Positions 814 to 8,069 of a stretch of 8,189 nucleotides of DNA are shown piece by piece. How positions within the stretch are numbered: position 1 is the stretch's first letter; each line of letters opens with the position of its first letter. The position numbers and the translations under genes are program-made. This DNA is from Escherichia coli (GTDB taxonomy: Bacteria; Pseudomonadota; Gammaproteobacteria; Enterobacterales; Enterobacteriaceae), in assembly GCF_003334305.1 (NCBI RefSeq), contig NZ_QOWS01000044.1, one strand, 5' to 3'. The notes below the pieces were generated by a model that did no database searches, was not told where the DNA came from, and saw nothing but the letters and a program-made list of their open reading frames with translations.

Positions 814-842
814 AGTATAGAGGGTTTGCGCGCCCTTGTCAC
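814..842 (-). promoter_or_regulatory. rnpB sigma70 promoter (-35 GTGACA at 837-842, 17-bp spacer, -10 TATACT at 814-819, start near 806)
   Basis: On the minus strand: GTGACA, a 17-nt spacer, TATACT, then 7 nt to the M1 RNA 5' end. The -35 hexamer overlaps the garK stop codon (839-841). Confidence 0.6.
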
Positions 843-1984
843 CCCGCGTTGCGCATTCCAATCGCCAGTGTCGCGGCGATATTACGTGAAGCACGGCAGA
901 TATTGTCATAAGCCCCGCGGAATGCTTCGTCCAACGTACCTATGCTGGTCAATACGCTGAAGACCGCATCGATGCCATGCTGATGTACAACGCCAACATC
1001 ATCGGTCAGGCTACCCGCAATGCCAATCACCGGTTTATGGTACTTCTTCGCCACGTTTGCAACGCCAATCGGTACCTTGCCGTGAATACTCTGGCTGTCA
1101 ATACGCCCTTCACCGGTGATCACCAGCGTACAATCGTGAATATGTTCCTCCAGATTCAGCGCCGTAGTGACGATTTCAATACCACTTTTCAGTTCCGCAC
1201 CAAGAAACGCCATCAGCGCCGCACCCATACCGCCCGCAGCTCCTGCGCCGGGGACATCTTTCACATCAACATGCAGCGCTTTTTTAATGACATCGGCATA
1301 GTGAGAGAGGTTATTGTCCAGCTCAACAATCATCGCTTCACTGGCTCCCTTTTGTGGGCCAAAGATGCGCGATGCGCCGTTATCGCCCACCAGCGGATTG
1401 GTGACATCACAAGCGACGCGAATGACGCAATCTTTTAAGCGCGGATCGAGGCCGGAAATATCAATATCATTCAGAGTATTAAGACTACCGCCGCCAAAAC
1501 CAATTTCATTGCCGTTGGCGTCGCATAATTTCGCCCCCAGCGCCTGTACCATGCCTGCGCCGCCATCATTTGTAGCGCTACCGCCAATGCCGATAATAAT
1601 GTTTGTCGCGCCGCTCTCCAGCGCCTGCAGGATTAACTCGCCTGTGCCGCGTGAAGTGGTCACGAGTGGATCGCGTTTTTCCGCAGGTACCAGCTCCAGC
1701 CCACTGGCCGCCGCCATTTCAATAAACGCGGTTTTGCCATCGCCGGAGATCCCCCAACTGGCATTCACTTTCTCGCCCAGCGGCCCTGTAACCCAGGCGT
1801 GACGTTCAGAACCCTGGGTGGCTGCAATCATCGCTTCCACCGTTCCTTCGCCACCGTCGGCAACCGGAATAGAAACGTACTGTGCATCAGGAAAAATTTC
1901 CCGAAATCCTTTTTCTATCGCCTGCGCAACCTCGCTGGCAGATAAACTTTCTTTATAAGAGTCTGGGGCGATTACGATTTTCAT
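839..1984 (-). CDS. garK: Glycerate kinase (glycerate 2-kinase), 381 aa
   Basis: The ORF track gives 839..2065, but the conserved N-terminus MKIVIAPDSYKESLSA begins at the internal ATG (complement of 1982-1984). That gives 381 aa, the expected size. Glycerate kinase family motifs (GGEGT, GxGGSATNDGG) are present. It is last in the gar operon order. Confidence 0.9.
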   Translation of the reverse strand: MKIVIAPDSYKESLSASEVAQAIEKGFREIFPDAQYVSIPVADGGEGTVEAMIAATQGSERHAWVTGPLGEKVNASWGISGDGKTAFIEMAAASGLELVPAEKRDPLVTTSRGTGELILQALESGATNIIIGIGGSATNDGGAGMVQALGAKLCDANGNEIGFGGGSLNTLNDIDISGLDPRLKDCVIRVACDVTNPLVGDNGASRIFGPQKGASEAMIVELDNNLSHYADVIKKALHVDVKDVPGAGAAGGMGAALMAFLGAELKSGIEIVTTALNLEEHIHDCTLVITGEGRIDSQSIHGKVPIGVANVAKKYHKPVIGIAGSLTDDVGVVHQHGIDAVFSVLTSIGTLDEAFRGAYDNICRASRNIAATLAIGMRNAG

Positions 1985-2080
1985 ACCTATGCCTGTTACC
2001 ACATGACGCCGGAGGGCGTTTCTCTTATTCGGCCTGGATTCCAGGCCCGGATTGCAATACGCCATCCGGGCACGACGTCA

Positions 2081-3786: not shown

Positions 3787-5121
3787 TTATTTCTGCAATT
3801 CCATACGTTTAATGTCGCCAACTACGAAGAGGTAGCAGACCATCGCCATCAGCGCTGAACATCCCACGAAAACCAGTGCTGCATTGAAGGAGTGCAGTTC
3901 ACTTACCAGGTAGCCAATCACCAGTGGAGTGACAATGGAGGCAACATTGCCAAAGACGTTAAAGACGCCGCCACAGAGGCCAACAATCTCTTTCGGCGCG
4001 GTGTCAGAAATCACCGGCCAGCCCAGAGCACCAAATCCTTTGCCAAAAAAAGCCAGCGCCATCAGCATGACCACCAGCGTGGTGTTGTTGGTGTAGTTAC
4101 ATAAGATGATGGTGGAAGCCAGCAACATTCCCAGCACAATCGGTAGCTTACGTGCCAGGGTCAGGGATAAACCGCGTTTGATCAGATAATCCGAGAAGAC
4201 ACCTCCCAGCACGCCGCCCGCAAAACCACACAGTGCCGGAATCGAGGCGACCAGACCCACTTTCAGAATCGACATGCCTTTTTCCTGCACCAGATAAATC
4301 GGGAACCAGGTGAGGAAGAACCAGGTGATGGTGTTGATAAAATATTGTCCGAAAAATACGCCCAACATCATGCGGTTAGAGAGCAATTGCTTGATGTAAT
4401 GCAGTTTGGGACCGCTTGCTGCCGCGCTGCCCGGCTTTTTGTGGTCCATATCGACCACCGCGCCATTTTCAGAGATAAACTTCAGCTCTTCCGCAGACAT
4501 ACGTGGGTGATCTGTCGGGTTATGAATCAATTTGATCCACAGCGCCGTCAGCACAAAACCAATCACCCCCATAACGGTAAAGACGTGCTCCCAGCCCCAG
4601 GCGAAAGTCAGCCAGCCAAGCAGAGGCGAAAAGAGCGCCAGCGAGAAATATTGCGCCGAGTTAAAGATGGCGGAGGCAGTACCACGTTCTTTCGTCGGGA
4701 ACCAGGCGGCGACAATACGGGCGTTCGCCGGGAATGATGGCGCTTCCGAGAAGCCGAGCATAAAGCGCATAAAGAACATGGAGATCCCTGCCCAGGCCAG
4801 CGGGAACATATCAACAAAGCCTTGCAGGAAAGTGAATAGCGACCAGAAAAAGAGGCTATAGGTATAAACTTTTTTCGAGCCAAACTTATCAAGCAGCCAG
4901 CCGCCGGGGATTTGCATCAGCAAGTAGGCCCAGCCAAAAGCAGAAAAGATGTAACCCATCGAAACCGCACTTAACTGCAACTCTTTTGCCACTTCGGTAC
5001 CAGCAATAGACAGCGTTGCACGATCGGCGTAGTTAACGGCGGTAACAATAAAAATAATCAGTAATATTAAATAGCGGGTATGCACGCCTTTCTTTTTTTC
5101 GTCAACGGTGTCCAGAATCAT
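3787..5121 (-). CDS. garP: Galactarate/glucarate/glycerate transporter, MFS superfamily, 444 aa
   Basis: 444-aa ORF, highly hydrophobic with multiple predicted transmembrane helices typical of an MFS anion:cation symporter. GAGG Shine-Dalgarno about 7 nt upstream of the ATG. First gene of the minus-strand operon. Confidence 0.92.
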   Translation of the reverse strand: MILDTVDEKKKGVHTRYLILLIIFIVTAVNYADRATLSIAGTEVAKELQLSAVSMGYIFSAFGWAYLLMQIPGGWLLDKFGSKKVYTYSLFFWSLFTFLQGFVDMFPLAWAGISMFFMRFMLGFSEAPSFPANARIVAAWFPTKERGTASAIFNSAQYFSLALFSPLLGWLTFAWGWEHVFTVMGVIGFVLTALWIKLIHNPTDHPRMSAEELKFISENGAVVDMDHKKPGSAAASGPKLHYIKQLLSNRMMLGVFFGQYFINTITWFFLTWFPIYLVQEKGMSILKVGLVASIPALCGFAGGVLGGVFSDYLIKRGLSLTLARKLPIVLGMLLASTIILCNYTNNTTLVVMLMALAFFGKGFGALGWPVISDTAPKEIVGLCGGVFNVFGNVASIVTPLVIGYLVSELHSFNAALVFVGCSALMAMVCYLFVVGDIKRMELQK

Positions 5122-5495
5122 TTTATTTACCTCGGGTACTTATGCTGATTTTTATTATTATGGAGAAGGTGTTATTTATGAGTTTCATTTATGCCGTAAC
5201 GGCAATGAACTCGGGAATTAGTATAAGCAGCGCGAGAATAATAATCATTGTGCAAATGCTAATTTAATTAATACTATTTAAATATTATTTTGAGCATATG
5301 CACATAAGGTTGCGCGCTAAAGCACAGATTTGCGCTTTACCTTGCCGGGCGGCACTGCAATCCCTGAAATGATTGACATTGATCACATTTCTGCGTTTAA
5401 ACTCCTGACATTCTTATTTCACCCAATGAAGTCATTTATTTTTAAATGAGACCAGGTCCTCATTTTAATAACCCCTGGCTGGAGAATATTGCACA
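5122..5495. promoter_or_regulatory. Divergent garP / garD intergenic control region (AT-rich)
   Basis: 374-bp non-coding spacer between divergent starts. It holds a very AT-rich tract (about 5240-5300), a TTGACA at 5373-5378, and several palindromes. The gar genes are known to be controlled by the CdaR (SdaR) activator, but I cannot place its sites with certainty. Confidence 0.6.
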
Positions 5496-7067
5496 ATGGC
5501 CAACATCGAAATCAGACAAGAAACGCCAACTGCGTTTTATATAAAAGTTCACGACACAGATAATGTGGCAATTATTGTTAATGATAATGGCCTGAAAGCA
5601 GGAACGCGTTTTCCGGATGGGCTGGAATTAATTGAACATATTCCCCAGGGGCATAAAGTCGCATTGCTGGACATTCCGGCTAATGGTGAAATTATTCGTT
5701 ATGGCGAAGTGATTGGTTACGCCGTGCGTGCAATCCCACGCGGAAGCTGGATCGACGAATCAATGGTTGTACTACCGGAAGCGCCGCCGTTACACACGCT
5801 GCCACTGGCAACCAAAGTCCCGGCCCCCTTACCGCCGCTGGAAGGATACACCTTTGAGGGCTATCGCAATGCCGATGGCAGCGTGGGCACCAAAAACCTG
5901 CTCGGCATCACCACCAGCGTCCACTGTGTGGCAGGCGTGGTGGACTATGTAGTAAAAATCATTGAACGCGATCTGCTACCGAAATACCCGAACGTCGATG
6001 GCGTGGTGGGGCTGAATCATTTGTACGGCTGTGGCGTGGCGATTAACGCACCGGCGGCAGTTGTGCCTATTCGTACCATCCACAATATTTCGCTGAACCC
6101 TAACTTTGGCGGCGAAGTAATGGTGATTGGTCTGGGTTGTGAAAAGTTGCAGCCTGAGCGCCTGCTGGTCGGCACGGATGATGTGCAAGCTATTCCAGTA
6201 GAAAGCGCCAGCATTGTCAGTTTGCAGGATGAAAAGCATGTCGGTTTTCAGTCCATGGTCGAGGATATTTTGCAGGTCGCCGAACGCCATCTACAAAAAC
6301 TGAATCAACGTCAGCGAGAAACCTGTCCGGCTTCAGAACTGGTTGTCGGCATGCAGTGCGGTGGCAGCGATGCCTTTTCTGGCGTAACGGCAAACCCGGC
6401 GGTTGGCTATGCGTCTGATCTACTGGTGCGCTGCGGCGCAACGGTGATGTTCTCAGAAGTCACGGAAGTGCGTGACGCGATCCATCTGCTGACACCACGC
6501 GCAGTGAACGAAGAGGTCGGCAAACGGCTGCTGGAGGAGATGGAGTGGTACGATAACTATCTCAATATGGGAAAAACCGACCGCAGCGCCAACCCTTCGC
6601 CGGGCAACAAGAAAGGCGGTCTGGCAAACGTGGTAGAGAAGGCACTCGGCTCCATTGCTAAATCGGGTAAAAGCGCAATTGTTGAAGTGCTGTCGCCCGG
6701 TCAACGCCCGACTAAACGCGGATTAATTTACGCCGCGACGCCAGCCAGCGATTTTGTCTGTGGCACGCAACAGGTGGCTTCGGGTATCACCGTGCAAGTG
6801 TTTACGACCGGTCGTGGTACGCCGTACGGCCTGATGGCGGTACCCGTCATTAAAATGGCGACCCGCACCGAGCTGGCGAACCGCTGGTTTGATTTAATGG
6901 ATATTAACGCGGGCACTATCGCCACCGGCGAAGAAACCATTGAAGAGGTGGGCTGGAAGTTGTTCCACTTTATTCTCGACGTCGCCAGCGGGAAGAAGAA
7001 AACCTTCTCGGATCAATGGGGGCTGCATAACCAGCTGGCAGTGTTTAACCCGGCACCGGTGACCTGA
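5496..7067 (+). CDS. garD: Galactarate dehydratase, 523 aa
   Basis: 523-aa ORF starting [26 protein letters not shown], with an SAF-like N-terminal domain and altronate/galactarate dehydratase family body. GGAGA Shine-Dalgarno at 5480-5484. Confidence 0.93.
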
Positions 7068-7551: not shown

Positions 7552-8015
7552 TGGATTTTCCACAAAGGGTTAATGGTTGGGCGCTATATGCTCATCCCTG
7601 TTTTCAGGAAACCTACGACGCTTTAGTTGCCGAAGTCGAGACATTAAAGGGAAAAGATCCTGAAAATTATCAGAGAAAAGCCGCCACAAAGTTATTGGCG
7701 GTAGTCCATAAAGTGATTGAGGAGCATATCACGGTCAATCCATCATCACCGGCATTCCGTCATGGCAAGTCGTTAGGCTCTGGGAAAAATAAAGACTGGT
7801 CACGGGTAAAATTTGGTGCTGGTCGTTATCGTCTCTTCTTTCGTTATAGTGAAAAAGAGAAAGTCATCATTCTGGGATGGATGAACGATGAAAACACTCT
7901 GCGCACCTACGGTAAAAAAACAGATGCCTATACCGTATTCAGCAAAATGTTAAAAAGAGGACATCCTCCTGCCGACTGGGAAAGCCTCACCCAAGAGACA
8001 GAAGAAAACCATTGA
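7551..8015 (+). CDS. yhaV: Type II toxin YhaV, RelE/ParE-superfamily ribonuclease, 154 aa
   Basis: 154-aa ORF starting MDFPQRVNGWALYAHPCFQETYDALV, translationally coupled to prlF by a 1-nt overlap. Matches the E. coli YhaV toxin as I recall it. Confidence 0.9.
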   Translation: MDFPQRVNGWALYAHPCFQETYDALVAEVETLKGKDPENYQRKAATKLLAVVHKVIEEHITVNPSSPAFRHGKSLGSGKNKDWSRVKFGAGRYRLFFRYSEKEKVIILGWMNDENTLRTYGKKTDAYTVFSKMLKRGHPPADWESLTQETEENH

Positions 8016-8069
8016 TGGTGTTCACAATGCCCGCCGAACGTATTCGTGTTGACCAGCGGGCACCCTTTC

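Follow-up and report, generated by a model that had tools for sequence, protein, structure and literature searches.

A conserved CRP-binding site in the garP/garD intergenic region of Escherichia coli and a candidate Class II promoter for garD

The intergenic region that separates the divergent genes garP and garD of Escherichia coli carries a genuine CRP site, a 22-mer that has already been published as a binding site. Conserved sequences around this site suggest that CRP acts on garD as a Class II activator in combination with CdaR-dependent induction. We consider this reading, taken as a whole, to be rather likely; its transcription start, -10 element, Class II mechanism and CdaR role are all predictions. 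CRP-cAMP would bind centred between positions 5379 and 5380, RNA polymerase would use an extended -10 element, TGaCATTCT (5406-5414), and would start near A5421, and CRP at -41.5 would stand in for the -35 hexamer. Induction by galactarate, glucarate or glycerate would probably come from CdaR bound at two GCACA boxes (5290-5304 and 5310-5331).

Galactarate and glucarate are sugar acids that are used by E. coli and Salmonella in the inflamed or antibiotic-treated gut. A CRP site that acts at garD would tie their catabolism directly to catabolite control, beyond the indirect route via cdaR. It also yields a testable promoter model, in which CRP lies at -41.5, the extended -10 at 5406-5414 and the CdaR-like boxes upstream. 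The garD gene is a case of ordinary catabolite control of a sugar-acid gene, and the result is an incremental annotation of a standard regulatory design, with no new mechanism.

The window, meaning the whole stretch of DNA that was analysed (8189 bp), corresponds to the E. coli garK-garR-garL-garP (minus strand) / garD (plus strand) / prlF-yhaV region, as judged from the list of open reading frames and the RefSeq annotation of identical loci. The garP boundary at 5121 and the garD start at 5496 delimit a divergent intergenic region of 374 bp, which is found in 5418 of the 5426 complete E. coli genomes. Relative to MG1655, whose coordinates equal those of the window plus 3269786, the intergenic region differs at three bases, none of them within the CRP-site feature, and there are no insertions or deletions. 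The features discussed below are collected in Table 1.

Elsewhere in the locus, the longest open reading frame for garK spans 408 aa (839-2065, minus strand) as compared with 381 aa (1146 nt) in RefSeq, since the frame runs upstream of the annotated start. The reference genomes have rnpB directly downstream of garK. E. coli T28R has an IS1 element inserted just downstream of the CRP site, at a point matching 5393/5394 of the window, and lacks garD with its promoter, as well as the adjacent genes as far as the aga cluster.

Table 1. Positions of the features in the window, and of related elements at other loci where a locus is named
Feature	Position	Strand	Evidence or remark
CRP binding site ATGATTGACATTGATCACATTT	5369-5390	.	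matrix, ChIP-seq, Footprint-seq, conservation
TTGACA, -35 of the original prediction	5373-5378	+	6/6 match; coincides with left CRP half-site, GTGATC in other genera
TTTAAA, -10 of the original prediction, unlikely functional	5396-5401	+	lacks A2 and T6; columns 41-63% conserved
Most conserved non-CRP block on the garD side, AACTCCTGACATTCTTATTTC	5400-5420	+	MAFFT alignment of 41 regions; anchored profile
Candidate extended -10 TGaCATTCT: TG 5406-5407 (-15/-14), hexamer CATTCT 5409-5414 (-12 to -7)	5406-5414	+	conserved fixed offset
T, -15 if extended -10	5406		86% conserved
G, -14 if extended -10	5407		89% conserved
A, -13 if extended -10	5408		variable (A/T/G/C)
C, -12 if extended -10	5409		98% conserved
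A, -11 if extended -10	5410		100% conserved
TTC, -10 to -8 if extended -10	5411-5413		variable, sometimes toward consensus
T, -7 if extended -10	5414		100% conserved
garD transcription start (A after C), prediction only	5421	+	geometry from -10 assignment; CRP centre at -41.5
garD Shine-Dalgarno sequence GGAGA	5481-5485	+	read directly; block 5477-5498 conserved (MAFFT alignment)
garD coding sequence, galactarate dehydratase, 523 aa	5496-7067	+	list of open reading frames; RefSeq annotation of identical loci
Conserved upstream box, E. coli TTGCGCGCTAAAGCACAGATTT, family consensus CTGGGCGCTGATGCACAGATTT	5310-5331	+	41-region alignment
Near-palindromic box TTGAGCATATGCACA, candidate CdaR site	5290-5304	+	at least 90% conserved at most columns; GCACA motif in common with other boxes
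Candidate garP promoter TTGCAC-N24-TATACT; -10 TATACT at 5225-5220	5220-5255	-	-10 and box conserved across genera
TTGCAC-N24-TAT(A/G)CT, gudP upstream region	L083 8244-8279	-	
TTGCAC-N24-TAT(A/G)CT, cdaR upstream region	L084 2405-2440		

The original prediction described the 22-mer as a CRP-like arrangement of two half-sites, ATTGA (5372-5376) and TCACA (5383-5387), 6 bp apart. The 22-mer is present as given, and direct reading of the sequence confirms both half-sites and their spacing. The 16-bp core of the site, ATTGACATTGATCACA, occupies 5372-5387, and its dyad centre falls between 5379 and 5380. The right half-site with its flank, GATCACATTT, is a perfect match to the consensus; the left half-site was rightly described as poor, because ATTGA matches only three of the five consensus bases.

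The window was scored with a CRP matrix trained on 105 ChIP-seq sites from ETEC, from which the garP/garD sites had been excluded. The core at 5372-5387 is the best match in the 8189 bp, with 12.9 bits compared with a median of 13.0 for the training sites. A shuffled window is expected to contain 0.12 matches of this quality, and when the 374-bp intergenic region alone is shuffled, 0.3% of the resulting sequences contain one. By itself, such a motif is only suggestive of CRP binding; it is the published binding data and the conservation that decide. The second-best match in the window, ATTGATGGTGTTCACA (8011-8026, 10.9 bits), falls in the 3' end of yhaV, immediately ahead of the convergent gene agaR, and probably arose by chance.

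Two genome-scale binding studies include the site. Haycocks et al. (2015) reported a high-confidence CRP ChIP-seq peak in ETEC H10407 that was assigned to garP/garD, and the site listed for it, TGTGATCAATGTCAAT, is the reverse complement of window positions 5372-5387 (PMC4287617). The signal recorded for this peak is low, with a value of 1 in the third column of the table, a column whose meaning is not defined in the available text of that article (PMC4287617). By using Footprint-seq, Wang, Stringer and Wade (2026) obtained an in vitro CRP footprint, aaTGTGAtcaatgTCAATcat, with an estimated Kd of 1.9 nM (PMC12871828). The centre of the footprint at MG1655 position 3275166 corresponds to 5380 of the window, and the sequence is identical to the site studied here (PMC12871828). 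The footprint is tabulated among the novel sites whose inferred Kd is less than 10 nM, again assigned to garP / garD, and according to its authors the site was absent from the described or predicted CRP sites that they used for comparison (PMC12871828). The affinity reported in vitro is high despite the degraded left half-site.

Expression data point in the same direction. Deletion of crp leads to down-regulation of garD (PMC8846999), and under carbon limitation garD is upregulated together with the Crp-cAMP-dependent group of genes (PMC6390033). The authors of the latter study attributed the rise of garD to an indirect route via cdaR, whose promoter they showed to bind Crp-cAMP (PMC6390033); binding of CRP to the cdaR promoter is found by Footprint-seq as well (PMC12871828). 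The effect of crp on garD expression could therefore be indirect, through cdaR. Concerning the 22-mer itself, the top matrix match, ChIP-seq, Footprint-seq and conservation agree with the reduced expression of garD in the crp deletion, and its assignment as a CRP site in the original prediction was correct.

To follow the site across species, a genome scan with GarD was used, which produced 80 loci. From these, 63 distinct sequences were aligned without gaps on the CRP site (the anchored profile), spacings were counted separately in 58 sequences, and 41 intergenic regions were aligned with MAFFT. Each of the other 57 Enterobacteriaceae loci has a CRP site in front of garD, and in nearly all of them the match is stronger (14-19 bits) and typically has the form AGTGATC..GATCACATTT. 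The site is also retained in Pectobacterium, Serratia, Dickeya, Rahnella and others. Among the 63 distinct sequences, G5375, A5376 and the TCAC at 5383-5386 are invariant, and the left half-site columns have G in 92% at 5373, T in 94% at 5377 and C in 68% at 5378. A weakened left half occurs only in Escherichia loci, where it reads ATTGACA in E. coli and E. whittamii and ATTGATA in E. albertii, in place of the AGTGATC found elsewhere. The change has produced, within the CRP site, a perfect -35 hexamer together with an FNR-like half-site, TTGA.

Downstream of the CRP site, the most conserved block on the garD side (5400-5420) lies at a fixed, ungapped distance. The original prediction had noted a second TGACATT here and had placed it at 5405-5411, which reads CTGACAT; the motif is present, and its position is 5406-5412, one base further along. 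All 58 sequences have a CAnnnT hexamer at the same offset from the CRP site, and TG stands two bases before it in 53 of them. The garD ATG, on the other hand, lies at 27 different distances from the CRP site in the 58 sequences, ranging from 88.5 to 254.5 bp, as against a fixed distance of about 29.5 bp from the CRP dyad to the candidate -10, in which the key A(-11) and T(-7) are invariant. Variants of the hexamer include CATGCT, CATCCT, CATTAT, CACTAT and CAGTAT.

More distant taxa (Budvicia, three Rahnella, Enterobacillus, Dickeya, an Erwinia and Gallibacterium) have, at the same offset, hexamers of other sequence that retain A at position 2 and T at position 6, such as CAGAAT, CAGATT, GAAATT and AAATAT. 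The fact that these hexamers differ in sequence and share an offset argues for a -10 element over a sequence-specific protein site. An invariant A at -11 and T at -7, a TG at -15/-14 and a free position -13 together form the signature expected of an extended -10, and the garD -10 element is most likely TGaCATTCT, the best candidate. If the hexamer is 5409-5414, transcription would start at approximately A5421 and the CRP dyad would be centred at -41.5, which is the canonical Class II position.

The C at -12 (98%) and the CC at -17/-16 (90-94%) are more conserved than a -10 element requires, and a protein site may overlap this block. Two other readings of the block were considered and rejected. 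Taking CTGACA (5405-5410) as a -35, with CRP at -61.5, would require a -10 at 5428-5433, where the sequence is GAAGTC and is unconserved. A sigma-54 reading of TGACAT-N5-TTTC fails since the conserved positions differ from the GG and GC positions. The supplementary data of the ROSE paper, of Romero et al. 2014 and of the Shigella M90T paper, consulted for a mapped start, mention neither garD nor garP.

The alternative that survives best accepts the CRP site and places the core promoter of garD further downstream. In this arrangement, TTCACC (5418-5423) would be the -35 and TTAAAT (5442-5447) the -10, or else TATTTT (5437-5442) would serve as the -10, and transcription would begin in the vicinity of 5449-5454. 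This would leave CRP to act as an upstream activator at about -70 to -75, in a Class I-like or architectural role, and the block at 5404-5419 would be the site of another protein, possibly CdaR, centred near -42. Several observations are consistent with this. A -10-like hexamer with A2 and T6 (GATAAT, TATAAT, TACAAT and others) is found at offsets of 70-73 from the CRP site in 25 of 58 species, or 33-36 bp downstream of the candidate extended -10. The stretch contains a conserved CTTTATTTC...ATAA..GAAA motif, and TTCACC-18-TTAAAT ranks sixth in the E. coli sigma-70 scan. Furthermore, CdaR-type boxes lie near -42.5 at garP, gudP and cdaR, and the garD block would be in the equivalent position for a start at 5454.

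However, the canonical A2/T6 hexamer is present in fewer than half of the species and its offset is variable, and E. coli has in this stretch no hexamer with both bases. Moreover, the CRP positions that would result for most species, -74.5 to -77.5, are out of phase with those known for Class I activators (-61.5, -71.5/-72.5 and -82.5). The block is also unlike the GCACA boxes, and the distribution of its invariant and variable bases is more like that of a -10 than that of a transcription-factor site. We therefore regard a downstream core promoter as unlikely, and prefer the extended -10 at 5406-5414.

The stretch that would hold the downstream promoter is, under the preferred assignment, part of the garD leader. 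Its conserved motif (5430-5452, family consensus CTTTATTTC..ATAAT..GAAA) could serve as a binding site for a protein or as an alternative -10 region. In E. coli, the leader contains a perfect 7-bp inverted repeat, TCATTTA-TTTT-TAAATGA, at 5432-5449. RNAalifold found no consensus RNA structure in the predicted garD leader, and a conserved leader RNA hairpin was accordingly discarded as indirect support for the start site.

Further upstream, two strongly conserved boxes with a GCACA motif are situated between the garP and garD promoters, and both are candidate CdaR sites that would provide inducer control. For the box at 5310-5331 there is a second possibility, a weak additional CRP site at 5311-5326. 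These 16 bases score 7.9 bits on the CRP matrix, and their reverse complement, TGTGCTTTAGCGCGCA, is the second CRP site predicted by Haycocks et al. (PMC4287617). The box lies 45 bp from the CRP site in 49 of 58 sequences. The exceptions are three sequences with 44 bp, one with 34 bp and three with 23 bp; the spacings of 34 and 23 bp fall 11 and 22 bp short of the usual one, differences of whole helical turns.

The garP side of the region has a distinct arrangement, TTGCAC-N24-TAT(A/G)CT, that is found once each upstream of garP, gudP and cdaR. Because the pattern was derived from these three promoters, it is a description of them, and shuffle statistics do not provide an independent test. The TTGCAC lies within a 14-bp near-palindrome (for example, TTAGC-ATTT-GCACA) that would centre near -42.5. 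The near-palindrome is a candidate CdaR operator that, together with its -10, recurs in three of the four CdaR-controlled promoters, with garD as the exception: within the window, TTGCAC-N24-TATRCT matches on the garP side and has no match on the garD side. Its absence from garD fits with CRP occupying a position of about -42 there. Text searches of the literature for garDp and for CdaR binding sites returned nothing usable.

A good CRP-like site, TGTGAACTTCACCACA, is also present upstream of cdaR in MG1655 (L084 2357-2372), about 33 bp upstream of the TTGCAC box. This site fits the reported binding of CRP to the cdaR promoter, and thus CRP may control both the regulator and garD.

The location of the site in a shared divergent region raises another explanation, namely that CRP is bound there and serves garPLRK, or has an architectural or negligible role, and that its effect on garD is wholly indirect, through activation of cdaR. 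Both binding papers assign the site to garP / garD (PMC4287617, PMC12871828), CRP does bind the cdaR promoter, and an indirect effect on garD was the proposal of the authors of the carbon-limitation study themselves (PMC6390033). Against this, the predicted garP start is about 166 bp away from the site, as compared with 30 bp for the invariantly spaced element on the garD side, and the high-scoring site is conserved throughout the family with a fixed geometry toward garD only. We judge a solely indirect or garP-directed role quite improbable, and retain direct action at garD. Loci that lack garP were dropped as proof that the site belongs to garD, because the entire divergent regulatory region is kept at these loci and they do not discriminate.

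A core promoter composed of TTGACA and TTTAAA was the part of the original prediction that did not hold. Both hexamers and the 17-bp spacer between them (5379-5395) can be read in the sequence as claimed. Nevertheless, the -35 is restricted to Escherichia, TTTAAA lacks A(-11) and T(-7), and both hexamers are unconserved; the proposed pair is probably wrong. Other genera read GTGATC, a CRP half-site, at the position of TTGACA, which is why it is not a conserved -35. On the comparative data, TTGACA is a decayed left CRP half-site. The anchored profile shows that the stretch 5393-5403 is poorly conserved, and a scan for sigma-70 promoters reported no promoter-like site in the intergenic region, because TTTAAA is without the A at position 2 and the T at position 6.

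When E. coli alone is scored with a simple sigma-70 matrix, based on approximate published hexamer frequencies, TTGACA-19-TAAACT and TTGACA-17-TTTAAA rank first and second, and CATTCT ranks only 31st of 160 positions. Single-sequence and comparative evidence therefore disagree. We give more weight to the comparative evidence because TTGACA is lineage specific and because CRP would be at a repressing position relative to it, yet garD expression falls without CRP.

The original model can be extended so that the Escherichia TTGACA is the -35 and the -10 is either TTTAAA, with a 17-bp spacer, or TAAACT (5398-5403), with a 19-bp spacer. Transcription would then start near 5408-5410, and CRP would overlap the -35 and compete with RNA polymerase or modulate it. 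These are the two top plus-strand sigma-70 combinations of the region in E. coli (9.85 and 9.43), the -35 matches at 6/6 positions, and TAAACT carries both A2 and T6. On the opposing side, the -35 hexamer is found only in Escherichia, with the bases of a CRP half-site elsewhere; neither of the key -10 bases is present in TTTAAA, and spacing of 19 bp is unfavourable; 5393-5403 is weakly conserved; and the promoter scan reports nothing there. In addition, CRP at about -28 to -30 would block or repress transcription, whereas deletion of crp lowers garD expression. Such a promoter is, in our estimation, very unlikely. An Escherichia-specific rewiring atop an ancestral Class II promoter, giving either a start near 5410 (TTGACA-N19-TAAACT) that is independent of CRP or occluded by it, or else a hybrid CRP/FNR input, appears just as doubtful.

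The preferred model of a CRP-activated promoter with an extended -10 resembles known systems. The galP1 promoter is an example of a Class II CRP-dependent promoter with an extended -10. In common with promoters of this type, garD has its CRP dyad 41.5 bp before the predicted start and lacks any recognisable -35 hexamer; its weak candidate -10 hexamer is preceded, one base away, by TG, and the CRP-to-(-10) spacing is invariant across genera. It differs in that the garD start is predicted only and its hexamer opens with a conserved C. Also unlike these promoters, garD would need CdaR, a pathway-specific activator, in addition, so it would be a co-dependent promoter rather than one controlled by CRP only.

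At araBAD and melAB, CRP acts together with a specific activator. The garD promoter is similar in that catabolite control would be layered on inducer-specific activation, with several conserved candidate activator boxes at fixed helical spacing from the CRP site. However, in promoters of the araBAD and melAB type the specific activator usually lies next to the -35 with CRP upstream, whereas garD is predicted to have the opposite order: CRP would sit at -41.5, and the CdaR-like boxes lie further upstream, near -100 and -123. The garP, gudP and cdaR promoters share with garD the regulon, the inducers and GCACA-containing boxes. Where these three have TTGCAC-N24-TAT(A/G)CT, with the box near -42.5, garD has a CRP site at the equivalent position.
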